Of a stretch of DNA of 64,000 bases, positions 51,977-64,000 are shown in pieces (position 1 is the first letter of the stretch; each line of letters begins with the position of its first letter). Made by a program: the position numbers and the translations under genes. This DNA comes from Bacteroidota bacterium (lineage in GTDB: Bacteria; Bacteroidota; Bacteroidia; Chitinophagales; Chitinophagaceae), in the NCBI GenBank assembly GCA_040388705.1, contig JAZKBI010000016.1, forward strand, positions 13,504 through 77,503, in the 5' to 3' direction. The notes beneath the pieces were generated by a model. It was not told where the DNA came from and did no database searches. It was given only the letters and a program-made list of their open reading frames with translations.

Positions 51977-53059
51977 TTATAAATATTTATCTCCCTTATT
52001 CCTCTTCACCTCAGCCACATATTCTTTGATCGATTGTTCTTTTTCCTTCTTGCAGATCAGTAATACATCTTTGGTATCTACAATGATAAAATCATCCATA
52101 CCCTGCAATACAACTAATTTTTTATTGGGGGCCGACACCATGCACTTGGTCGCATCGATCACGATTACATTTTCACCGGCCACAGCGTTACCGAGATAAT
52201 CTTTTTCGAGATTATCGTATGCGCTGTTCCATGTACCGAGATCGCTCCACCCAAAAGAAGAAGGGATCACGTACACATTGTCCGCCTTTTCCATGATGGC
52301 AAAATCGATCGAGACGTTGGTGCACAAAGGATAGATGCGGTTAATAGCTTCCTTCTCTTTGGGTGTGTTCAGGTTTTCTTTTTCGCCATCAAACAGGTCG
52401 AACATTTCGGGCTGATACATTTCAAATGCTTTCACCACATTTTTTACCTGCCACACAAAGATGCCCGCGTTCCAGAGAAAATCGCCGCTGGCAAGAAAGG
52501 TCTTGGCCAGTTCAAGATTTGGTTTCTCGGTAAAGGTCTTTACCTTATAAATACCGTCAGCAACAGCCATGGGTTCATGTTGTATATACCCGTAGCCCGT
52601 ATTCGGATGCGTTGGTTTGATGCCTAATGTTACCAAGGATTTGATATGTTTTACGAAATCGAGGGCCTGTATAGTGATCTTGCGAAAATTCTCATTGTCC
52701 AAAATCATATGATCACTGGGCGCTACGATCAGCGATGCTTCAGGATCTTTCTGCAATAACTTAAATGAAATATATGCAACACATGGAGCCGTGTTTTTAC
52801 GGCTTGGTTCGGCAATGATATTTTCCTCAGGTATCCCGGGCAGCTGTTCTTTTACAATATGGCAATACTCCTCAGAAGTAACCACGAAAATGTTCTCTGC
52901 CGGTATAAAGGCCGCATAACGCTCAAATGTCCACTGGATAAGTGATTTCCCTGTATTCAGTATATCAAGAAATTGTTTTGGATAAGCAGTACGACTACTT
53001 GGCCAGAAACGGCTTCCGATACCGCCTGCCATGATCGCAACATAGTGATGCTTGTTCAT
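51977..53059 (-). CDS. manC: Mannose-1-phosphate guanylyltransferase
   Basis: IMAGGIGSRFWPSSR..PKQF, EPSRKNTAPC, PSDH, TFTEKP, WNAGIF and WSDLGTW. Start placed at ATG 53059. Confidence 0.93.
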   Translation of the reverse strand: MNKHHYVAIMAGGIGSRFWPSSRTAYPKQFLDILNTGKSLIQWTFERYAAFIPAENIFVVTSEEYCHIVKEQLPGIPEENIIAEPSRKNTAPCVAYISFKLLQKDPEASLIVAPSDHMILDNENFRKITIQALDFVKHIKSLVTLGIKPTHPNTGYGYIQHEPMAVADGIYKVKTFTEKPNLELAKTFLASGDFLWNAGIFVWQVKNVVKAFEMYQPEMFDLFDGEKENLNTPKEKEAINRIYPLCTNVSIDFAIMEKADNVYVIPSSFGWSDLGTWNSAYDNLEKDYLGNAVAGENVIVIDATKCMVSAPNKKLVVLQGMDDFIIVDTKDVLLICKKEKEQSIKEYVAEVKRNKGDKYL

Positions 53060-53122
53060 TAATTCGAAAGTTAGATAACGGGCAATTTTGCGCTGCAATA
53101 TTACAGGCTTTATTTGTAATTA

Positions 53123-53229
53123 AGCTATGAGCTTTGAGCCATGAGCTGCGAGCCTGGTCTGTGTAACGGGGAAGCGGCCATCAAAATGTTCCAGCCTAGC
53201 TCATGGCTCGTAGCTGATGGCTCAAAGCT
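53123..53229. repeat. GAGCTNN heptad inverted repeat, copy 5 (kdsD/manC)
   Basis: AGCTAT GAGCTTT GAGCCAT GAGCTGC GAGCC ... AGCTC ATGGCTC GTAGCTG ATGGCTC AAAGCT. Confidence 0.85.
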
Positions 53230-53232
53230 TTT

Positions 53233-54195
53233 CTAAACAATTCCTTCCCTCACCAGGTCATGAATATGTAAAATACCCAGGTACTTACCGTTTTCAGCTA
53301 CGATCAACTGGCTGATATCATTATTCCGTAATGTGTCCAGCGCTTCCACGGCCAATAAAGAAGGCTGTATGGTTTTGGGATTGGCAGAGAGGATGTTTTT
53401 TGCGGTGATTGATTGAATATTGTCGCTTCTTTCCAGCATCCTTCTCAGGTCGCCATCGGTAATGATACCTGCTAATTGCCCGTCGGCATCGATAACTGCG
53501 GTTACGCCCAGTCTTTTTTCTGTGATCTCAACGATCACCTCTTTCAAGGTGGCCGAAGGCAATACGGCTGGCTTCTCATTAGCTGTATAAAGGTCGCTGA
53601 CCCTTAGATATAGGCGTTTTCCAAGGTTACCTCCCGGGTGGAACTTTGCAAAATCCTGACCCGTAAAACCATTCAGTTGCATCAGGCAAACAGCCAGCAC
53701 ATCACCCATAACCATCTGGGCCGTGGTGCTGCTGGTGGGGGCAAGGTTATTGGGACAGGCTTCTTTACTTACCGTAGTATTTAACAGGATATCGGCATTT
53801 ACCGCGAGGAAACTCTCCGTATTTCCCACCATCCCTACCAGGGTATTGCCAAAATTTTTGATCAGGGGAACCAATACTTTGATCTCGGGGCTTTCGCCGC
53901 TTTTGCTGATAATCATTACCACATCTCCCTCCTGGATCATACCCAGGTCGCCATGAATGGCATCGGCCGCATGCATAAAAAGAGCAGGCGTACCGGTGGA
54001 ATTCAGCGTAGATACGATCTTCTGGGCCACAATAGCGCTTTTGCCGATCCCACTGATCACCAGGCGGCCTTTTGCTGCATGCACGGTTTGAACGGCTTTT
54101 TCAAAAGAAGCATCGATAAAAGCGGCCAGCCCTGCAACGGATTGGGCCTCTAATTGTATGGTATGCAAGGCGGTTTGAGCGATGGATGAATTCAT
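53233..54195 (-). CDS. kdsD: KpsF/GutQ arabinose-5-phosphate isomerase (SIS plus CBS)
   Basis: SGIGKS, STGTPA.FMH..DA.HGDLG, NLAPTSST and FHPGGNLG. Start placed at ATG 54195 because TACCTTTG overlaps the track's TTG start. Confidence 0.92.
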   Translation of the reverse strand: MNSSIAQTALHTIQLEAQSVAGLAAFIDASFEKAVQTVHAAKGRLVISGIGKSAIVAQKIVSTLNSTGTPALFMHAADAIHGDLGMIQEGDVVMIISKSGESPEIKVLVPLIKNFGNTLVGMVGNTESFLAVNADILLNTTVSKEACPNNLAPTSSTTAQMVMGDVLAVCLMQLNGFTGQDFAKFHPGGNLGKRLYLRVSDLYTANEKPAVLPSATLKEVIVEITEKRLGVTAVIDADGQLAGIITDGDLRRMLERSDNIQSITAKNILSANPKTIQPSLLAVEALDTLRNNDISQLIVAENGKYLGILHIHDLVREGIV

Positions 54196-54412
54196 GGCGA
54201 ACAAAGGTAAACTTTAACGGTTAACCATACATATTGCCATGATACTTCGTTAACTTCGCCATCCTTATTATAAAACTTCCTCCTGACCAGGGAACACTAA
54301 CTGGATTATTGCCTCGCCGGATTGATAACTTTTACACGATAAAGTCCGGAAAATGAAGTATATTATTACCTGTTACTCCCGCGAAGTAGGGAAGAAAATT
54401 GATTTTTGATAC

Positions 54413-56698
54413 ATGGCTACTACTGCAAAAAAAGCAGCTCCCAAAAAAGCTGCACCTTCAAAAAAGACTGCTGCCCCCAAAGCAACACCCGTAAAAATTG
54501 CCCATACCTACGATATTTGCGGTGCACTCGAACAATATTTTGGCTTCCGCGAATTTAAAGGAACACAGGAACTGGCGATCAACAGCGTGTTGAGCGGCCA
54601 GGACACTTTTGTGATCATGCCCACGGGCGGTGGCAAAAGTTTATGTTACCAGTTACCCGCGATGATTATGCCGGGTTGCGCCATTATTGTATCGCCATTG
54701 ATCGCTTTGATGAAGAACCAGGTTGACCTGGTACGCGGTTACAGCGAAAATGATGAAGTAGCGCATTTCCTGAACTCATCACTTAATAAAGGACAGATAA
54801 AAGCCGTTCGCGATGACCTTACTGCCGGCAAGACCAAACTTTTATACGTAGCACCCGAAACGCTCACCAAACAGGAGAACCTCGATTATTTCAGCGACCT
54901 GCAGATCTCTTTCTTCGCGGTGGATGAAGCGCATTGTATTTCTGAGTGGGGCCACGATTTCAGACCGGAGTATAGAAGGCTTCGCGAAATGATGGATATC
55001 ATCAACCCCGATATTCCTGTGGTTGCTTTAACAGCAACTGCAACACCCAAAGTAAAAAGTGATATTGTAAAAAACCTCGGCCTTCGTGAACCGAATATTT
55101 TTCTTTCTTCGTTTAATCGGTCCAATCTCTATTACGAGATACAGCCGAAGATCGAAAAAGAACAAACGATCAAGAGCATAGTTAAATTCATTACTGGTCA
55201 CAAAGGAAAAAGCGGGATCATTTATACGCTCAACCGCAAAACAACGGAAGAACTGGCGGAGATCTTAATGGCCAATGGCATCAAAGCCGTTGCATATCAT
55301 GCCGGGCTTGATCAAAAATTACGTGCAGACAGACAGGATAAATTTTTGAATGAAGATGTGCAGGTGATCGTTGCCACCATCGCATTCGGAATGGGTATTG
55401 ATAAACCGGATATCCGTTACGTGATCCATTTCAATATTCCCAAATCAATAGAAAATTATTACCAGGAAACCGGCCGCGCGGGGCGTGATGGTATGGAAGG
55501 TATTTGTGTGCTGTACTATTCACACAAAGATGTTTCCAAGCTCGAACACCTGATGCGGGATAAACCTTTAAGCGAAAGAGAAGTAGGCGCTCAACTCATT
55601 GATGAAACGGTAGCCTACGCCGAAAGCGCTGTTTGCCGTCGTAAAATACTACTCCATTATTTTGGAGAAGACTGGGACACACCCAATTGCGGCAACTGCG
55701 ATAATTGTAAACATCCGAAAGAAAAAATAGAAGCCAAAGACGAAGTGGTGAAGATGCTGAAAGTGATCAAAGCACTGGACGAACGTTTTACCACCGATTA
55801 CGTGGTGAACGTAGCCATGGGTAAACTCACACCACAGATCAATATTTACCGTCACGATGCTTTGCCCGTTTTTGGAATCAGCACCGACACTGATGCTCAT
55901 TTGCTGAACAGTATGGTGAGACAGATGTTGCTGGAGAACCTCATCAAAAAAGATATTGAAGAATACGGCTTACTCAAGCTCACAGACAAAGGAGAGAAGT
56001 TTATAAAAAAACCAACCTCCTTTAAAATTGTGCTGAACAATTTATTTGAAGACGCACAGTTTGATGAAGATGAAGGAGAGAACGCCTCACAAACAGGCGC
56101 GGCAGCGGATGACAAATTATTCGAGATGCTGAAAGAACTGCGTGGAGTAGAAGCCAAGAAAAAAAGCCTCCCGCCATTCGTGATCTTCCTCGAGAATTCG
56201 CTGCAGGATATGGCCACCATCTATCCCACTACGCTGGAAGAAATGGAAAAATGCCAGGGCGTAAGCAAGGGCAAAGCCATTAAATACGGCAAGCCATTCG
56301 TAGAACTCATCGCGAAATATGTGGAGGAAAACGATATTGAAAAGCCGGATGATTTTGTAATGAAGAGCGTGGCCAATAAAGCCAACAACAAAATTTACAT
56401 CATCCAGAACGTTGATAAAAAAATTCCATTAGAAACCATCGCCAGGAACAAGAGCCTCAAACTCGATGAGCTCCTCGAAGAAATGGAAACCATCGCCGCC
56501 AGCGGCACCAAACTCAACCTCGACTATGCCATCGACGAATGGCTCGATGAATACGACCAGGAAGAGATCATTGAGTATTTCAAAGGTTGTCAAACCTCTT
56601 CCCTCCAAATAGCGCAGGAAGAATTGAGTGAGAATAATTATAACTGGGAGCAGTTGAAAATTATGCGGATCAAGTTTTTGAGTGTGTTTGGGAATTGA
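54413..56698 (+). CDS. recQ: ATP-dependent DNA helicase RecQ
   Basis: [41 protein letters not shown], Zn motif CRRK...CGNCDNC, RQC and HRDC domains. Confidence 0.97.
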
Positions 56699-56727
56699 TC
56701 GCGGATTTGAATATTGATTTTGTGAAG

Positions 56728-56753
56728 AGCCCGTTCTGCATGAGCGGGCTTTT
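56728..56753 (+). terminator. recQ terminator
   Basis: AGCCCGTTC-TGCAT-GAGCGGGCT-TTT. Confidence 0.6.
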
Positions 56754-56850
56754 CTGTGCCTGATAGCTGCCTTTAACTTTTGGAAAGCTTCAAACTTATC
56801 AAAAGTTGTATTGCAATCACAAACGCGATACGGCCACGTCTGGAATAAAA

Positions 56851-56893
56851 GTCAACTCAATTGTCTCCACAGTGCGGAGACAATTGAGTTGAC
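56851..56893. repeat. 18-bp perfect inverted repeat duplicated inside yhcG
   Basis: GTCAACTCAATTGTCTCC-ACAGTGC-GGAGACAATTGAGTTGAC; the core is 28/29 identical (inverted) to 57446-57474. Confidence 0.9.
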
Positions 56894-57158
56894 TGCACTG
56901 TCCACCTTTGCAGATTTACTTCATCGCGGTAATATATCAGTAGGCAAACCGATCTTCCGGAGCGCCGTGTCTAAAAACGGTTGTTTGGCCGAAAAGTTAA
57001 GAGTGTTTTTACATCACTATCAGCGTATTAATACTCTATGAAAAACAAACTCTAATTATTTCCTTTGTTCATAGTGTGATACAGTTAGCGTTTCCCACTA
57101 TGCAAGGTCCACCAAAGAACGAAAACCGATATTAGGATAAACTCCAAACTATGAAGCA

Positions 57159-58202
57159 ATGCCTACAGAAATAAAACCCTCCCGATTTTTAATAGACGAA
57201 ATAAAACTGCTAATCGATGAAAGCAAACAGCGGGTAGCTGTAGCAGTAAATGCGACTTTAACTATGCTTTATTGGAATGTTGGTAGAAAAATAAATGAAG
57301 AGATACTTGCCGATAAACGGGCTGAATACGGCAAACAGATAGTGCAATCACTAGCACTGCAATTACAAGCAGAATATGGTACTGGTTGGAATGAAAAACA
57401 ATTGAGGCATTGTCTCCGCTTTGCAGAGATAATTCAAGACAAACAAATTGTCTCCGCACTGCGGAGACAATTGACCTGGACACATATAAAATCAATAATT
57501 TATATCGATGATGAGCTGAAAAGGGCGTTTTATATTGAAATGTGTAAAATTGAAAAATGGAGTACAAGAACATTACAGGAGCGCATCAATTCCCTGCTCT
57601 ACGAAAGAACTGCTATTAGCAAAAAGCCGGAAGAAACCATTAAGCAGGAATTGGCAATATTCAAACAAACACAACAAATTACACCCGATCTGGTTTTTAG
57701 AGACCCGTACTTTTTAGATTTCTTGGGACTAAAAGATACCTACTCCGAAAGAGATTTGGAGTCAGCAATTGTAGCTGAATTGCAGCGCTTTATTACAGAG
57801 CTGGGTAGCGACTTTTCGTTCTTGGCCCGCCAAAAACGAATAATGGTAGACAATAAAGACTATTATATTGACCTGCTTTTTTATCACAGGCGGTTAAAAT
57901 GTTTAATTGCCATAGATTTAAAAATTGGAAATTTTGATGCGGCCTACAAAGGCGAGATGGAGCTCTACCTGAACTATTTAGAAAAACACGAAATGGTAGA
58001 GGGTGAAAATTTACCTATTGGCCTGCTGCTTTGTACGGGTAAAAGCCCAGAGCATGTTGAACTGTTGCAATTACACAAAAGCAATATAAAAGTAGCCGAT
58101 TACTTTACTATTCTGCCGTCGAAGGAGATATTACTTGATAGGCTGCATAGAGCTATAGATATAGCAAAAAATCAAATAGCCCAAAGAGAAAGTGATCAAT
58201 AA
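57159..58202 (+). CDS. yhcG: YhcG/DUF1016 PD-(D/E)XK nuclease
   Basis: VAVNATLTMLYWNVG, RAEYGKQIV, FRDPYFLDFLGL, FLARQKRI, DLLFYHRRLKCLIAIDLK and PIGLLLC. Confidence 0.92.
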   Translation: MPTEIKPSRFLIDEIKLLIDESKQRVAVAVNATLTMLYWNVGRKINEEILADKRAEYGKQIVQSLALQLQAEYGTGWNEKQLRHCLRFAEIIQDKQIVSALRRQLTWTHIKSIIYIDDELKRAFYIEMCKIEKWSTRTLQERINSLLYERTAISKKPEETIKQELAIFKQTQQITPDLVFRDPYFLDFLGLKDTYSERDLESAIVAELQRFITELGSDFSFLARQKRIMVDNKDYYIDLLFYHRRLKCLIAIDLKIGNFDAAYKGEMELYLNYLEKHEMVEGENLPIGLLLCTGKSPEHVELLQLHKSNIKVADYFTILPSKEILLDRLHRAIDIAKNQIAQRESDQ

Positions 58203-58259
58203 ATTTTCCCGAGATGCGATATGCGAGTGATTGCTTTAACATGCCAATGCAATAAATAT

Positions 58260-60899
58260 TTAAACCTTCTTGATCAAATCCTTCGCCTTGTCCGCGTTGT
58301 ACGCTCCCGGAATATCTTTTTTATCGAACACCATAAAATAAAAATAATTATCACCTGCCTTGTCAGACCATGTATTGCCTAAACGGCATTTAGCAGCACT
58401 GTCTGAATTGTCGCGGTCATCCCCTTTGGTTTCTATGATAATAACTTTACCCGATGTAGTAACTGCAATAAAATCAGGATAATGATTACTCTTAAACCCA
58501 TTGATAGAAAATCCTTTTCCTCGACCAAGGTTTCTGTGCCAGAAAGCAATATTTGGTAAACTTGCAATGTCCTGGATAACGGTTGTCTCAAAATTATTCA
58601 TATCACCTTCACGTTCATACAATGACTTGGTAATAGACGAACCTAGCATGCCCGGTACAATCATATCAGGAAAACGCCAAACAGGCTCTGTTTGTATTTT
58701 TTTTGTTTTGACCATGTCATCGAACTGACCCTCGGCATAAGCATCAGCGTGCTGGCGTATCCTTTCTTTAATTTTAGCGGCGTAACTGTACTTCCTGGAA
58801 AGGATATCCTGCAATTGATCAGCAGTTAATCCGCCTAAAATCCTTTCAATATAAGTTCTGATCTCAGGATCTGAAATAGGATACATATCCCCAACCATTT
58901 GTATTAACTGGTGTGAGATGTCTTTTATCTGATTCTCTTTTGGTTTTGCCAGAATGTATTCTATAATTGGATCTTTAAGTAATTGATCTTCTATCTTTAT
59001 CCTGCGGGGCGTATATTCATCCTTACCTGTTAATTCAACATCTATCTTATATAAGTCTGAAGTGATTTGATCAAAATCAATTTTTGAATCTTCGTTGTTG
59101 AGTTTGAAGTTCTTCAATAGAGATTCCTGGTTAAGTAGCATACTGTCCGTTCCAAAAATATCGCTCTTAGGAACGCTTAAGAAAAACTGGGGTAATACAA
59201 TACCCGAAGCCAATGCTTTGTTGGCCTCAGTCATTTTGTACCGTTTTACTTTGTCTCCCATTTCCTGAAAAATATTTTCGTCAACGGGTTGCTGACTTTG
59301 TTGTTCAATAATGGCTGCCATTTCGCGATCCTGGGCTTCAGCCATGTGTTCTATTTCCGTAATAACTGTTGCTTGTGGTAGTGCGCCTGATGTAATTTCA
59401 GAATCAAACCAAATTCTTCCCACTTCAATATCTTCTGTATTTGCCTTTGCTTCCTGTTCTTCCGGAAATAAAAGTTGCCCTAATTGTTCTTGTGCTGCCT
59501 GCTGCTTCTCTTCCTCCGTCATTTGGTCTTTACCGCGGTAGTCTTTTCCACTAAACCCGGAACCTTGTAAACCAGCTACTATATTGTCTAGCGTTTCGTT
59601 AAATTTCGCAGAGGCAGTTAGTACATACGAGACATTCAGCAAAGCGGCAATATGTTTCATTACATAGGGTTGGCGCAGTACACGACCTAATATCTGTTCC
59701 ACATCAACCGCAGATGATTTATCAGCAAGAGAAGCCAGTATATAAGCAAAGGGGCAATCCCATCCTTCCTTTAAAGCGTTAATGGTGATGATATATCTAA
59801 CTTCACAATCTCTCGACATCAGATCAAGTCCTTTCAACTCATCTTTTTCAGCGGTTTTGATTTTTATCTGTGTTTCCGGTATCCCTACTTTTAATAATTG
59901 ATCCTTCAGTTTTTCAAAAGTGGTATTATCCTCATTGGTTTTAGATTGTGCCTGGAACAAAACAATGGGGCGTATATATTTTCCTCCCAGTTTCTCTTCT
60001 TCTAATGCAAGTAATTCTAGTTTCCGCTGGAGGTGCAGTGCACTGTTGATCACATCGGTTTTGTCGTGGTGGTTGTAAACAATCACGGGAAGCTTAACCA
60101 TGTGCTCCTTTTTTAATTCAATGGCCGGAACAAGGCTAACAATATTACTGTTATCTTTTGGCGTGGCGGTTAGGTCTAAAACAAAAGAAGGATTAAGTGC
60201 ATTCAGCATATCTACACTTAGATCACTTTCTGCATTGTGGCTCTCGTCGACCACTAACACCGGATGGAGGCTGCGGATCACATTGATCAATGAAGTATCA
60301 TCCGTATTAGCCATTACGTGTGATTTGCTTTTGTATTGACTTGCAAATGAAGCAAGCTGCCCGTTTTCCTGATAAACTTTCCTGTCTTCTTTGTTTTTGG
60401 CGCGCAAACTGGCAAAGCCCATCACAATAATGGATAACTGTTCTTTTACAACTGTTGGATTAAAATTTGAACCCTGCAGCAAATCTTTTTTCTCATACAC
60501 TTCTACGCGATGGTTAAAAAGACCATCTAATTTTTGCCGGTAAGGATGATCCGGGTTGCGAAGATTGGAAACGGTTTGATCCAGTAAATTACTCCAGGGT
60601 ACCAGCCAGATTACTGCCTTTGGTATTTCATTGGAATATGCATTAAAAATGGAGTGTAAAGCATTACAAGCAATAAAAGTTTTGCCGCCTGCTGTTGGAA
60701 CTTTAATACAAACATGGGCAGCATTTGGAATGGTATTCTTATATGGCTGCATCCCTTCATTCGTGATTGGGTTGTAAGTACCGATACGATCCTGCCAATA
60801 TTTATTAAAAGCAATGTCGGTTTTCTTATACTGCTGCACATATCCCAGATAAGTTTCCAGGTCTTTGATTACTTTATGTTGATAGCTCTTTAGTTCCAT
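58260..60899 (-). CDS. res: Type III restriction subunit (SF2 helicase plus PD-(D/E)XK nuclease)
   Basis: KVPTAGGKT, VDESH, ALKEGWDCP, EQILGRVLR and C-terminal YPDFI...IETKG. Confidence 0.88.
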   Translation of the reverse strand: MELKSYQHKVIKDLETYLGYVQQYKKTDIAFNKYWQDRIGTYNPITNEGMQPYKNTIPNAAHVCIKVPTAGGKTFIACNALHSIFNAYSNEIPKAVIWLVPWSNLLDQTVSNLRNPDHPYRQKLDGLFNHRVEVYEKKDLLQGSNFNPTVVKEQLSIIVMGFASLRAKNKEDRKVYQENGQLASFASQYKSKSHVMANTDDTSLINVIRSLHPVLVVDESHNAESDLSVDMLNALNPSFVLDLTATPKDNSNIVSLVPAIELKKEHMVKLPVIVYNHHDKTDVINSALHLQRKLELLALEEEKLGGKYIRPIVLFQAQSKTNEDNTTFEKLKDQLLKVGIPETQIKIKTAEKDELKGLDLMSRDCEVRYIITINALKEGWDCPFAYILASLADKSSAVDVEQILGRVLRQPYVMKHIAALLNVSYVLTASAKFNETLDNIVAGLQGSGFSGKDYRGKDQMTEEEKQQAAQEQLGQLLFPEEQEAKANTEDIEVGRIWFDSEITSGALPQATVITEIEHMAEAQDREMAAIIEQQSQQPVDENIFQEMGDKVKRYKMTEANKALASGIVLPQFFLSVPKSDIFGTDSMLLNQESLLKNFKLNNEDSKIDFDQITSDLYKIDVELTGKDEYTPRRIKIEDQLLKDPIIEYILAKPKENQIKDISHQLIQMVGDMYPISDPEIRTYIERILGGLTADQLQDILSRKYSYAAKIKERIRQHADAYAEGQFDDMVKTKKIQTEPVWRFPDMIVPGMLGSSITKSLYEREGDMNNFETTVIQDIASLPNIAFWHRNLGRGKGFSINGFKSNHYPDFIAVTTSGKVIIIETKGDDRDNSDSAAKCRLGNTWSDKAGDNYFYFMVFDKKDIPGAYNADKAKDLIKKV

Positions 60900-60900
60900 C

Positions 60901-62565
60901 TTAGAAACGGGTTATATCCCTCGGGATCTTTTTGAAAACGATATTTTTTTTCAACATAAAATCTGTCGGTAACAGGCAGTTGTCTGCATAGATTACATAT
61001 TGTCCGGCCTTTACCTTGATGGTGCTGAGCATTTCAAAGTCGAGAGTGGTCAGACTGTCTGTTTCATAAATAAAATAGTAAGCAGTTTCTTCTTTCTTAC
61101 CCAGGAAATATTGTTCAGTATATGCTTCTGTATCGGTTGGGAATACTGTTCTTGTTTCACTATACCAAACATATTGTCTTACTTTTTCTTTACCCAAAGC
61201 GCTATTCAGACATTCATTGTTGGCCCCAATAAATAGCGGTTCTCCCAATGAGTAGTAGTCAAAAGCACCGTCTGCTCCTTCTGTATGATTGTAACCGGTT
61301 ACCACCCGTTTGACTCTTTCGGCAGTAGTTGTTTCGGCATAATCTTCCATTTCTATTAAAATGAATTTTCGGTTACCGCTATCTTGTTTATTTAAATTGA
61401 GCACGGCATGGGCGGTAGTGCCGGATCCGGCGAAGGAATCAAGGACAATATCACTATCAGATGTACAAAAACTAAGTAGGCGACGAACAATCGTTTCAGA
61501 TTTAGGGTTCTTAAAAAAATCTTTATGAAACATTTGCTCTAATTCTTTTGTAGATGCCCTGCCGTCTTCATAGATCACGCTTCTTAATCTATCTTTTACT
61601 GTATCTAGTCTTTTTTTGGGCTTAATCAAAGTAGTTTCATCTGATCCAAACATTATATCGTCGTTTTCGATCAATTCTTTCATGGTCGTTTCCGGAAACC
61701 TAAAACCTTTCTCAGGGATTTTACAAGGCATTCCTGTCACAGGATGTATTACCTCGTAGTTATATCCTCCAAATTTTGTGTTAGCAACATCTGCATCATG
61801 AAATACTCCTTTTTTGTCAACGTTATCATAATGGGTCACTTGAGGTAATAAATCTTTGTTTGCCTTTATCCATTTTCTAAGGTCTTTTTGAATTGAGTCA
61901 ATGTCGTTTGTGAATTTTTTCTTTAACTCTTCATACTTGGATTGGATAGATTCTGCAGCCAGCGATTTTGCATACCAATGCCCTTGTAAACTATTGTTGG
62001 CGGCGTAGCAAAGAACGTACTCGTGTTCTGTTGAGATTTGCGTTGGATTATTATCGGTAGCAGTTTCCCATATAATATTTCCAATAAAATTCATTGGACC
62101 AAATATCTCATCGAGTATTAGTTTTAGGTTAAACACTTCGTTGTTGTCTATAGAAATAAATATTACCCCTTCCGGCATCAACATTCTTTTCAACAGCACT
62201 AACCTTGGATACATCATACAAAGCCATTTGTCATGACGACTCAGGTCTTCGCCTTCTTTTCCAACAACTTGATCTAGCCATTTTTTTATTTGTGGATGAT
62301 CAACCTTATCACTGTATTTCCATTCATCTTTTCCAGTATTGTAAGGCGGGTCTATATATATACACTTTACTTTTCCCTCATATTCAGGCAATAATGCTTT
62401 TAAAGCTTCGAGGTTATCTCCGTGAATGATTTTGTTGCCGCTGTCGGTTTCCGTACTGCCTATGTGACCATTGGTAAACCCATATTCATGCTCCAATACC
62501 CGAAAAGGCACATCCCTGTGATGGTTCATCACCTTTTCTTTTCCTATCCAATGGAGTGTGGGCAT
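60901..62565 (-). CDS. mod: Type III site-specific adenine DNA methyltransferase (beta class)
   Basis: IIHGDNLEALK, CIYIDPPYNTG, WLCMMYPRL, PKSETIV and VLDSFAGSGTT; 1 nt upstream of res. Confidence 0.93.
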   Translation of the reverse strand: MPTLHWIGKEKVMNHHRDVPFRVLEHEYGFTNGHIGSTETDSGNKIIHGDNLEALKALLPEYEGKVKCIYIDPPYNTGKDEWKYSDKVDHPQIKKWLDQVVGKEGEDLSRHDKWLCMMYPRLVLLKRMLMPEGVIFISIDNNEVFNLKLILDEIFGPMNFIGNIIWETATDNNPTQISTEHEYVLCYAANNSLQGHWYAKSLAAESIQSKYEELKKKFTNDIDSIQKDLRKWIKANKDLLPQVTHYDNVDKKGVFHDADVANTKFGGYNYEVIHPVTGMPCKIPEKGFRFPETTMKELIENDDIMFGSDETTLIKPKKRLDTVKDRLRSVIYEDGRASTKELEQMFHKDFFKNPKSETIVRRLLSFCTSDSDIVLDSFAGSGTTAHAVLNLNKQDSGNRKFILIEMEDYAETTTAERVKRVVTGYNHTEGADGAFDYYSLGEPLFIGANNECLNSALGKEKVRQYVWYSETRTVFPTDTEAYTEQYFLGKKEETAYYFIYETDSLTTLDFEMLSTIKVKAGQYVIYADNCLLPTDFMLKKNIVFKKIPRDITRF

Positions 62566-62705
62566 TCAGTTAATCCTGATTTTCTGGCGTGCGAATTGTC
62601 TTTAAAGAACAATATTAAACTATTAAGACAATTAAATATACTTTAAGTACATATTACTTAACTGTAAAGACAGCTGGTAAATAATAGGTACAGGAATTTT
62701 GGAGT

Positions 62706-63074
62706 GTGAAAGAAAATACGATTGGAACACGCATCAGGAAGCTCAGGGTAAGCAAAGACTTAACCCAGGATAATATGGCAATGGACTTAGGAATCACCGC
62801 CGGCGCCTATGCAAAAATTGAAAGAGGAGAAACCGACCCTTCCGCCACCCGCCTGCTGGAAATCGCCGAGATCTTAGAAGTAGACGTTACCGTATTCTTT
62901 AGAGACAACACACCCGCCGCCAAATTTGAAGACCCGGGTAACCAATATGGATTTGCCACCAAACAGGATGTAGAAAAGCTTACACATCTCATGCAGCAAA
63001 TGAACCGCGAGATAGAAAAACTGAAATCCCAAAACTCCCCGAAGAAAAAAACCGCGGCCAAGAAAAGAAAGTAG
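62706..63074 (+). CDS. XRE/Cro-C1 HTH transcriptional regulator
   Basis: IGTRIRKLR...LTQ..MA..LGI...AYAKIERGET; basic C-terminal tail. Confidence 0.9.
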   Translation: MKENTIGTRIRKLRVSKDLTQDNMAMDLGITAGAYAKIERGETDPSATRLLEIAEILEVDVTVFFRDNTPAAKFEDPGNQYGFATKQDVEKLTHLMQQMNREIEKLKSQNSPKKKTAAKKRK

Positions 63075-63079
63075 GCCCC

Positions 63080-63114
63080 TTGTCTCTTGATTCTTGTTTC
63101 TTGATCCTTGTACC
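63080..63114. repeat. TTGWNNC heptad tandem repeat (single arm)
   Basis: TTGTCTC TTGATTC TTGTTTC TTGATCC TTGTACC. Confidence 0.7.
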
Positions 63115-63160
63115 TTTTATGGAATCCTCCCCACATCAGCGTCTCATTTAAAAAACGCTT

Positions 63161-63670
63161 ATGTCCGAAATTCAACAACAGGACAACCGCAGCAAGCGCT
63201 CCGGTATCCGCAGCAAAAAATTATCTACCCGTATTGATCTTACGCCGATGGTAGATCTTGGGTTTCTACTGATCACTTTCTTCATTTTTACAACAACCAT
63301 GCATGAATCCAAAGGAATGAGTATTGTTGTGCCGGATGATAAACCAACGACGGAACCCAATACGGCAGGCGAGGCCAAAACCATTTCCCTCATTTTACAA
63401 AATGATGACGTGATCCATTACTATCACGGCCTCGACCAGAAAGGATCGCAATCCACCAATTATTCGGTAGCCGGGCTTCGTGCGGTTATTCAGCAAAAGA
63501 TCCGGGAAGTAAAGGAGCGTTTTGGCAGCAAAGCCGATGCGATCATCCTGATCAAGCCTACGGATGGCGCGAGCTATAGGAACATCGTTGCTGTGATGGA
63601 TGAAATGCTGATCAATGATGTAAAAAAATATGTGCTCATGGAGCCGTCTGCAGAAGAAAAATCCCTGTAA
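63161..63670 (+). CDS. exbD: ExbD/TolR family biopolymer transport protein
   Basis: IDLTPMVDLGFLLITFFIFTT with the conserved Asp; IKPTDGASYRNIVAVMDEM. Confidence 0.9.
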   Translation: MSEIQQQDNRSKRSGIRSKKLSTRIDLTPMVDLGFLLITFFIFTTTMHESKGMSIVVPDDKPTTEPNTAGEAKTISLILQNDDVIHYYHGLDQKGSQSTNYSVAGLRAVIQQKIREVKERFGSKADAIILIKPTDGASYRNIVAVMDEMLINDVKKYVLMEPSAEEKSL

Positions 63671-63693
63671 GAAACGGGAATTTCCCCGTTTCT
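63670..63693. terminator. Hairpin terminator after exbD
   Basis: AGAAACGGG-AATTTC-CCCGTTTCT. Confidence 0.5.
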
Positions 63694-63816
63694 GTACGCA
63701 AATGAAATTTATTGGCATCATACTTGTGATATTTGAGCAGCGATCACAACAATAGACGTGTCATTACATTACCCCGGTGGAATGACATTTTTATAATAAC
63801 AGCTTAAACAGAGAGT

Positions 63817-64000
63817 ATGTATATCCAGAATTTGCAACCGGGCCTTGTAGACAACCTGAGCTACGTTACGGTAATGGCCAATAAGACCGGGCGTCTTATT
63901 TTAAAAGTGTTAGATATTGAAGGGCGCATCGCTAAAACAGTTGTGGCCAATATTGACGAAGGCAAACACCAACTGGAACTCAACATGGGCGACCTGAACA
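63817..64000 (+). CDS. T9SS type-A C-terminal sorting domain-like protein, partial (runs off the window)
   Basis: Hand translation MYIQNLQPGLVDNLSYVTVMANKTGRLILKVLDIEGRIAKTVVANIDEGKHQLELNMGDLN resembles the CTD pattern (xxPNP...I.D..GR......G......L). Confidence 0.65.
   Translation, partial: MYIQNLQPGLVDNLSYVTVMANKTGRLILKVLDIEGRIAKTVVANIDEGKHQLELNMGDLN

Follow-up and report, generated by a model that had tools for sequence, protein, structure and literature searches.

A covarying palindrome in the codons of YhcG/DUF1016 nuclease genes and its twin in a putative gene remnant

Rickettsia palindromic elements are mobile in-frame insertions of 100-150 bp found in many unrelated genes. Integron attC sites and the repetitive extragenic palindromic (REP) sequences with their RAYTs are palindromic DNA conserved in structure and variable in sequence, with conserved outer boxes and a tie to a particular enzyme gene. 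Short inverted repeats in Proteobacteria are kept perfect via template switching, following the Ripley model (Lavi et al. 2018, PMC5941160); those repeats are non-coding and yhcG is not mentioned among them. Functional mitochondrial coding genes of Nematomorpha carry perfect inverted repeats of up to 284 bp (Mikhailov et al. 2019, PMC6649704). A survey of programmed inversions found DUF1016 genes enriched next to the inverted targets and did not report them as targets (Milman et al. 2023, PMC9881135). Here we describe a palindrome inside a yhcG-type (DUF1016) nuclease gene, together with its twin upstream of that gene, in a 64,000-nucleotide stretch from a Bacteroidota bacterium of the Chitinophagaceae (GCA_040388705.1, contig JAZKBI010000016.1). 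This whole stretch is the window, to which all coordinates refer unless another locus or contig is named. The palindrome in the gene is one local instance of an element at the DNA level, situated in the DUF1016/YhcG codons for the helix before an invariant W-x-H motif. Full-text literature searches for DUF1016/YhcG found no description of the element in print.

The gene (57159-58202, plus strand) codes for 347 amino acids with a helical DUF1016_N domain (PF17761, 146.4 bits) and a YhcG_C PD-(D/E)XK nuclease domain (PF06250, 163.3 bits), exceeding the curated Pfam cut-offs of 32.8 and 32.5 bits, respectively. Its codons 97-105 (I97-L105, IVSALRRQL) form a perfect 13-1-13 palindrome, AATTGTCTCCGCA-C-TGCGGAGACAATT, at 57446-57472 on the plus strand, as a first-pass annotation of the window had pointed out. 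The element is taken to have arms of at least ~11 bp; in this copy, palindrome A, 13/13 pairs are complementary, the centre is the first base of the Leu101 codon, and W107 and H109 follow. Perfect palindromes with 13-nt arms and a loop of 0-1 nt number only 31 in the 6.1-Mb genome. Those of the ATT…AAT type with at least 11/12 pairs number only 6 genome-wide, and 3 of the 6 are associated with DUF1016 genes. The sequence shared by palindrome A and its upstream twin has only two copies in the genome. A dispersed repeat is thereby excluded; the many dispersed copies that mark REP/REPIN sequences were not found in this bacterium's own genome.

To place the palindrome within its family, 80 homologous loci from many phyla were retrieved (63-77% amino acid identity) and 79 of the genes were aligned by codon. 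The same nine codons are palindromic in nearly all homologs. At the A centre a mean of 11.5 of the 13 arm pairs is complementary, compared with 3.4±1.0 at all other centres (z ~8). Synonymous codons at A are frozen, with ATT for Ile97 in 77/77 genes, CAA for Gln104 in 65/65, TTR for Leu105 in 73/73 and CTG for Leu101 in 67/70; the same amino acids elsewhere in the gene show mixed codon use. The homologs have 57 distinct 27-mers at A, in which 642 of 741 arm pairs are Watson-Crick. At arm positions 5-9 both sides change together, including changes from G:C to C:G, and V98L is coupled in this way with Q104E. The dipeptides encoded by the two arms are near-deterministic couples (VS-IR, SA-RR, YT-CR, ST-WR and HT-CT). 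As homologs are palindromic at the same codons, the palindrome is not a one-off local duplication. What the first-pass annotation had envisaged for homologs was borne out: palindromy lies at exactly the same segment, the inner arms belong to the more variable columns, and a minority of loci have matching copies close to the gene. There is no presence/absence pattern of insertion among the 79 homologs. Two paralogs in the bacterium's own genome (33% identical) each carry two palindromes of the AATTCTGC…GCAGAATT type, which stand directly upstream of FSHH/FTHH, the counterpart of the W-x-H motif.

The arms pair as DNA does. With the loop-adjacent and outermost pairs excluded, sense-strand G:U mismatches (14) are no commoner than A:C (12) or any other mismatches. 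The synonymous Val98 codon GTT, which would be compatible with wobble pairing in RNA, is used in 0/57 of the versions at A, whereas GTT is freely used for the same Val at a second position in the gene, position C. Strict Watson-Crick pairing without a preference for wobble points to the DNA level and not to the mRNA, and a sense-RNA hairpin was rejected as the main constraint on the same grounds.

Position C (57338-57364, plus strand, IVQSLALQL) lies 108 nt upstream of A in the same frame. It is decayed in the window (8/26 self-complementary) and a good palindrome in many homologs; its mean of 7.7/13 is the second-highest palindrome score in the gene, and at 11 loci it has at least 11/12 pairs. 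Identical or near-identical cassettes are found at A in some genomes and at C in others. Position B (57408-57434, plus strand, HCLRFAEII) lies 38 nt upstream of A and is a third, degenerate copy within yhcG, 18/26 self-complementary here, with its ATTGTC motif one base out of A's frame. About 16 of 81 genes have a good palindrome at B, GTCTCCGC-TTT-GCGGAGAC, that is read as CLRFAE. The same arms are therefore read as VSA…RR at position A and as CLR…AE at position B. In several genomes the B centre has been converted to an A-like centre, altering a conserved Phe. Such copying of the arms regardless of frame indicates a process at the level of DNA.

The upstream twin (56850-56894) is an inverted repeat, AGTCAACTCAATTGTCTCC-ACAGTGC-GGAGACAATTGAGTTGACT, located ~590 bp upstream of palindrome A. 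The first-pass annotation had described it as a perfect 18-7-18 repeat; it is perfect, with arms one pair longer (19-7-19), and can also be read as 22-1-22 with one mismatched pair (95%). The 27-nt cores of the twin (56859-56885) and A (57446-57472) have 2 mismatches when compared directly and 1 when one of them is inverted (26/27). The earlier counts of 28/29 inverted and 27/29 direct hold in a 29-nt register, and the twin does read IVSTVRRQLS* on the plus strand. By chance 0.00 twin-like matches to palindrome A are expected (100 shuffles).

It had also been stated that the flanks of the twin have no other homology to yhcG. This was wrong, as hhalign, hmmsearch and tblastn all find homology in a frame shifted by one base. 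An open reading frame (ORF) of 76 codons (56811-57041, plus strand, its frame open from 56718) encodes …YGHVWNKSQL-NCLHSAETIE…CLAEK…QRINTL* and appears to be a strongly diverged partial DUF1016_N domain covering about residues 62-146. In the shifted frame the twin and its left flank read LQSQTRYGHVWNKSQL-NCLHSAETI, which hhalign matches to residues 67-92 of the family profile (LQLQAEYGTGWNEKQLRHCLRFAEII) over 25 columns with 56% identity (P=0.0085). Both hmmsearch and tblastn return the same register, and weaker similarity continues beyond it (CLAEK…QRINTL against CKIEKWS…ERINSL) to the stop at 57041. A Pfam scan of the ORF at 56811-57041 gave no match. Outside the palindrome, this putative fossil and the gene share 49-52% of their nucleotides, compared with 45±3-4% for shuffled sequence, and the palindrome itself is conserved at 25-26/27. 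With flank identity near random, a recent segmental duplication is ruled out as the twin's origin. The twin occupies position B of the fossil N-domain copy, in a reading frame different from that of palindrome A, and at the A position inside the fossil palindromy is lost. Each twin arm has 9 extra bp (AGTCAACTC / GAGTTGACT), which correspond to the coding flank (…K S Q L) on one side and to an inverted copy of it on the other; an arm extension made of inverted coding flank matches what a template-switch event would produce. Judged from these alignments, it is reasonably supported that the twin represents the same element, which has survived in a DUF1016 N-domain copy that is partial and decayed.

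Beyond the window, fossils and orphan palindromes recur near DUF1016 genes. At locus L070 the intact gene is preceded by an N-terminal fossil whose perfect B-type palindrome lies ~507 bp upstream of the gene's A centre, and L063 and L117 have fragments or orphans upstream of the gene. The orphans are placed at -300 bp from the ATG in the window, at about -220 bp in L070 and at +28 bp past the stop in E. coli. At L107 a deletion begins at the palindrome, and in L118 and L060 additional units are inserted between residues 95 and 97. Near-full-length second copies of DUF1016, ~32-35% identical to the query and in tandem, were seen within the 3-kb flanks of L016, L030, L053 and L092, and an N-terminal DUF1016 fragment within those of L051. 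The family is often present as adjacent divergent pairs.

In E. coli K-12, yhcG contains three palindrome units of 39 nt in tandem, and a perfect orphan follows 28 nt behind its stop codon; O157:H7 has one in-gene unit. E. coli strains lacking yhcG retain one perfect palindrome between gltD and nanQ, the arms of which show compensated changes relative to the K-12 orphan and match an in-gene unit of other strains. In a common E. coli variant the 3' part of yhcG is replaced exactly from the right end of unit 3. At two such loci (L095:2052-2357 and L096:1966-2271) the replacement is a 101-aa ORF with its left junction at the end of the third unit, annotated 'transposase' in one record and 'hypothetical' in another. 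Truncated E. coli yhcG genes with IS1 or IS3 were set aside as an effect of the palindrome, being ordinary insertion-sequence events. In E. coli STK39-3-E (L099:1440-1560) an IS1-associated 5' deletion of yhcG ends in the left arm of unit 3, a single case that may be a coincidence. A synthetic-junction search requiring a colinear match found an inversion between the in-gene units and the orphan in 0/4,468 E. coli genomes.

We also examined how quickly the arms change. The inner ten arm positions diverge by 0.57, compared with 0.35 for the gene and only 0.28 for the whole 27-mer. The close relatives L021 and L028, at 13% overall divergence, have 4 differences among the 10 inner positions. On the 79-leaf tree 47 cassette-type changes are counted, with 57 for shuffled labels and a median of ~40 for control words. 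The pattern is one of fast paired drift or cassette replacement, only modestly beyond controls. The palindrome was not supported as the main breakpoint of recombination between alleles: a two-tree likelihood scan has its peak near residue 143 and only a step between residues 95 and 103, and rate differences between the partitions may contribute to the signal as well. The best breakpoint at ~143 coincides with the boundary between the N domain and the nuclease, and the fossil ends at the equivalent of residue 146, which suggests domain-wise exchange between alleles.

An AlphaFold model built from a 54-sequence alignment has a pLDDT (predicted local distance difference test) of 72.7, with most of the N domain at ~80-89; a single-sequence model (pLDDT 40) was set aside. 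In the model the palindrome-A peptide is the helix 95-104, after which come W107 and H109, and positions C and B fall in helices 55-73 and 79-91, respectively. The same alignment shows a predicted PD-(D/E)XK core with a nearly invariant D238, an invariant L254-K255 and the motif …IDLLF…AID/ELK…. Foldseek matched the model to NucS/EndoMS, Can2/Card1 and other PD-(D/E)XK nucleases via the C domain only. No fold or DNA-binding match to the N domain was returned by Foldseek, a PDB sequence search or a permissive Pfam scan.

We lean, at slightly better than an even chance, towards a self-perpetuating DNA palindrome that is kept by conversion and by templated correction of its arms and that gives rise to rearrangement as a by-product. 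A strand-symmetric DNA process would hold the two arms complementary, the likeliest being correction templated by the hairpin (quasi-palindrome template switching) combined with conversion of short patches between neighbouring copies. The outer arms would be locked because the Ile-Val and Gln-Leu codons are mutual reverse complements. The inner five arm positions would drift at a roughly neutral rate, always as pairs, and the protein would tolerate the coupled residue changes (99/100 with 102/103). Palindromes of this kind would duplicate, promote local rearrangement and survive the decay of the surrounding gene, and a history of duplication and decay could have led to the fossil-plus-gene arrangement at the yhcG locus. 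Compensated arm changes and the 9-nt inverted flank copy on the fossil are both predictions of the quasi-palindrome template-switch model, which we favour because template switching is established as perfecting short inverted repeats in Proteobacteria (PMC5941160). Self-perpetuation is suggested because a fossil or orphan recurs beside an intact gene (L070, L063 and L117) and because deletions and tandem expansions are found at the palindrome (L107, L118, L060 and E. coli). On this reading the two palindromes would be neither operators dedicated to the yhcG locus nor an invertible switch there.

Several points weigh against self-perpetuation. The fossil assignment depends on a short alignment (P ~0.008). 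Complementary pairs average 11.5 of 13 at A, 7.7 at C and ~5 at B (the last being half of a mean of 10.3/26), and a mutational process alone leaves the better retention of A unexplained, as it does the rarity of other coding palindromes in the bacterium's own genome. Persistence is not automatic, since in the fossil A has decayed next to a perfect, extended copy at B. The identity of twin and A could also reflect selection for one common binding specificity.

This last point leads to the alternative that survives best, though we consider it unlikely: a functional site in the DNA, as a duplex operator or as a hairpin or cruciform once extruded, that dimeric YhcG or a partner would bind or cut for autoregulation, self-recognition or defence sensing. 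Long-term retention at one position with covariation across phyla would be expected of such a site, as would strand-symmetric pairing and the recurrence of orphans beside DUF1016 genes. The twin keeps the A sequence of the gene although its flanks have diverged, the C domain resembles nucleases of the NucS/EndoMS type that act on DNA as dimers, and in the model a single helix bears the variable residues 99, 100, 102 and 103. However, every one of these DNA-level signatures also fits template switching. The variable inner arms would demand a reader that co-varies with them or ignores them, and the N domain has no detectable match to a DNA-binding fold. Against such a site, and against the dual operator put forward in the first-pass annotation, the extra copies are inconsistently placed (upstream here and in L070, downstream in E. 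coli) and a perfect copy persists in E. coli strains without yhcG.

A more specific version, which we hold to be distinctly unlikely, is that YhcG/DUF1016 genes are self-addressed modules in which the in-frame palindrome and the orphans are the cognate duplex, hairpin or cruciform site of the gene's own dimeric, NucS-like nuclease. Such a module would serve autoregulation, self/non-self marking or mobility, and its inner arms would be an address code changing with the helix residues they encode.

Still less probable is templated diversification, in which A, B and C with the orphans and fossils would act as donors and acceptors that deliberately vary residues 99-103 of the N-domain helix. The divergence of the inner arms relative to the gene mean, the difference by whole cassettes between L021 and L028, the count of cassette changes relative to control words and the cassettes common to different positions and frames all agree with it. 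The excess of homoplasy over controls is modest, though, columns 99 and 102 come only 44th and 48th when all 347 are ranked by variability, and the same pattern is expected from neutral drift with arm correction. No sign of positive selection was seen, and no ligand is known. Of the hairpin donor/target that the first-pass annotation proposed for diversifying this segment, the paired and fast divergence of the inner arms, the cassettes shared across positions and frames and the homoplasy stand, while nothing shows the variation to be adaptive.

An RNA element is very unlikely. It could be a 12-bp hairpin in the yhcG mRNA affecting translation or stability, or a pair of minus-strand terminators against antisense read-through from the type III restriction-modification operon downstream. 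On the minus strand the twin has a 20-bp stem followed by TTTTATT, the pattern of an intrinsic terminator, and a stem with a T-run fits both palindromes on that strand only; the hairpin would be very stable. Against this stand the lack of any preference for sense G:U pairs and the complete absence of GTT at Val98, and the E. coli units have no T-run in either direction. Nor would an RNA element explain copies in other frames or orphans in strains without the gene.

Scarcely credible is the invertible or deletable switch of the first-pass annotation, by which recombination between the twins would flip or remove a 587-bp segment with the promoter and first 100 codons and so toggle the nuclease, since for all that the copies are 28/29 identical in inverted orientation around the promoter and 5' end and that DUF1016 genes are enriched beside programmed-inversion targets (PMC9881135), the same survey lists them as neighbours of targets and not as targets, no site-specific recombinase was found among the neighbours scanned over ~5 kb on the left and ~6 kb on the right, few homologs have the twin arrangement, homologs do not conserve the antisense frame, the assembler contigs of run X1 (likely the source sample, 297x) have only the reference arrangement, and no E. 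coli genome searched is inverted between the in-gene and orphan copies. A single opposite-strand joint came from another sample and was of low likeness. An antisense gene or in-frame invertible cassette was also rejected: the antisense frame has a median of 46 open codons, compared with 43 and 38 for the other antisense frames, and is open from A to C in only 38/79 homologs.

The genes around yhcG (51977-63999) code for a nucleotidyl transferase, a SIS/CBS protein, RecQ, YhcG, the type III Res and Mod proteins, an HTH_3 protein and ExbD. recQ (54413-56698, plus strand) is followed by a terminator-like hairpin at 56735-56748. The type III restriction-modification pair (58260-62565, minus strand; res 58260-60899 and mod 60901-62565), identified by Pfam and PADLOC, is convergent with yhcG. 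The top PADLOC match of the yhcG product itself is the candidate PDC-S02 (E=1.6e-125). Divergent from mod is a 122-aa HTH_3 (Xre-type) gene (62706-63074, plus strand) that may code for a controller of this restriction-modification system. In run X2, a related strain (depth 28, recQ ~6% diverged) has other DNA from ~56709 onward, which places the fossil, yhcG and the type III system in a variable region beginning right after recQ.

Other palindromes are present in this genome. Between the recQ terminator and the fossil lies a different one, AACTTTTGGAAAGCTTCAAACTTATCAAAAGTT (56775-56807), with relatives at C19:31402-31437 (containing a perfect TTTTGGAAAGTTTCAAACTTTCCAAAA), at C15:87671-87703 and in one congeneric genome; possibly this is a small hairpin repeat of the dispersed kind. 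Perfect 27-bp palindromes of one family, YTTGARGTCRCAAATTGYGACYTCAAR, are found at C2:3992, C3:551978, C3:552232, C3:831554, C5:214945 and C9:68375, and a second family, TAACCCCAGCCTTAAGGCTGGGGTTA, at C3:105158, C3:128463 and C3:823198. Both families look like REP-like dispersed hairpins.

A widespread family of defence-island nucleases, including a gene of E. coli K-12, thus hides a nucleic-acid element that overrides the choice of codons and amino acids. If the palindrome is only self-perpetuating, it would be a natural example, and an unusually clean one, of a protein shaped over very long times by template-switch correction, and would also account for the fossils, tandem units and breakpoints at DUF1016 loci. 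If it is a true DNA site, it would be the first functional clue to an uncharacterised family. Either reading is directly testable in E. coli K-12. For annotation, caution is advised with short palindrome-bearing ORFs and orphan hairpins beside DUF1016 genes, which are often gene remnants.

Among the known systems, the DUF1016 palindrome is like the Rickettsia palindromic elements in being translated as part of a protein. Unlike them it is not dispersed and has no insertion pattern, although its unit number varies in E. coli. Similar to attC and REP sequences, it is conserved in structure, variable in sequence and associated with one enzyme gene. It differs from these in being perfect without extrahelical bases, 27 bp long, intragenic and limited to two genomic copies, and neither an integrase nor an HUH transposase was seen among the scanned neighbours of yhcG. 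The arrangement at this locus recalls fimS and the hsdS shufflons, with inverted repeats flanking a promoter and coding segment in a defence-island setting; unlike those, it lacks a recombinase among the scanned neighbours, is seen in one orientation only in the assemblies, and has no coding capacity when inverted. As in the mitochondrial genes of Nematomorpha, protein sequence and DNA secondary structure are preserved together, but there the repeats occur in many mitochondrial genes of one animal lineage (PMC6649704) and here they are 25-27 bp at one homologous position of one prokaryotic family. Like the proteobacterial inverted repeats (PMC5941160), the yhcG palindrome has arms that stay perfect over evolutionary time, mutate on both sides together and may lengthen by copying the flank. 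Unlike them, it is coding, is held at one fixed codon position across phyla with coupled amino acid changes, and recurs two or three times per gene, with orphans close by.

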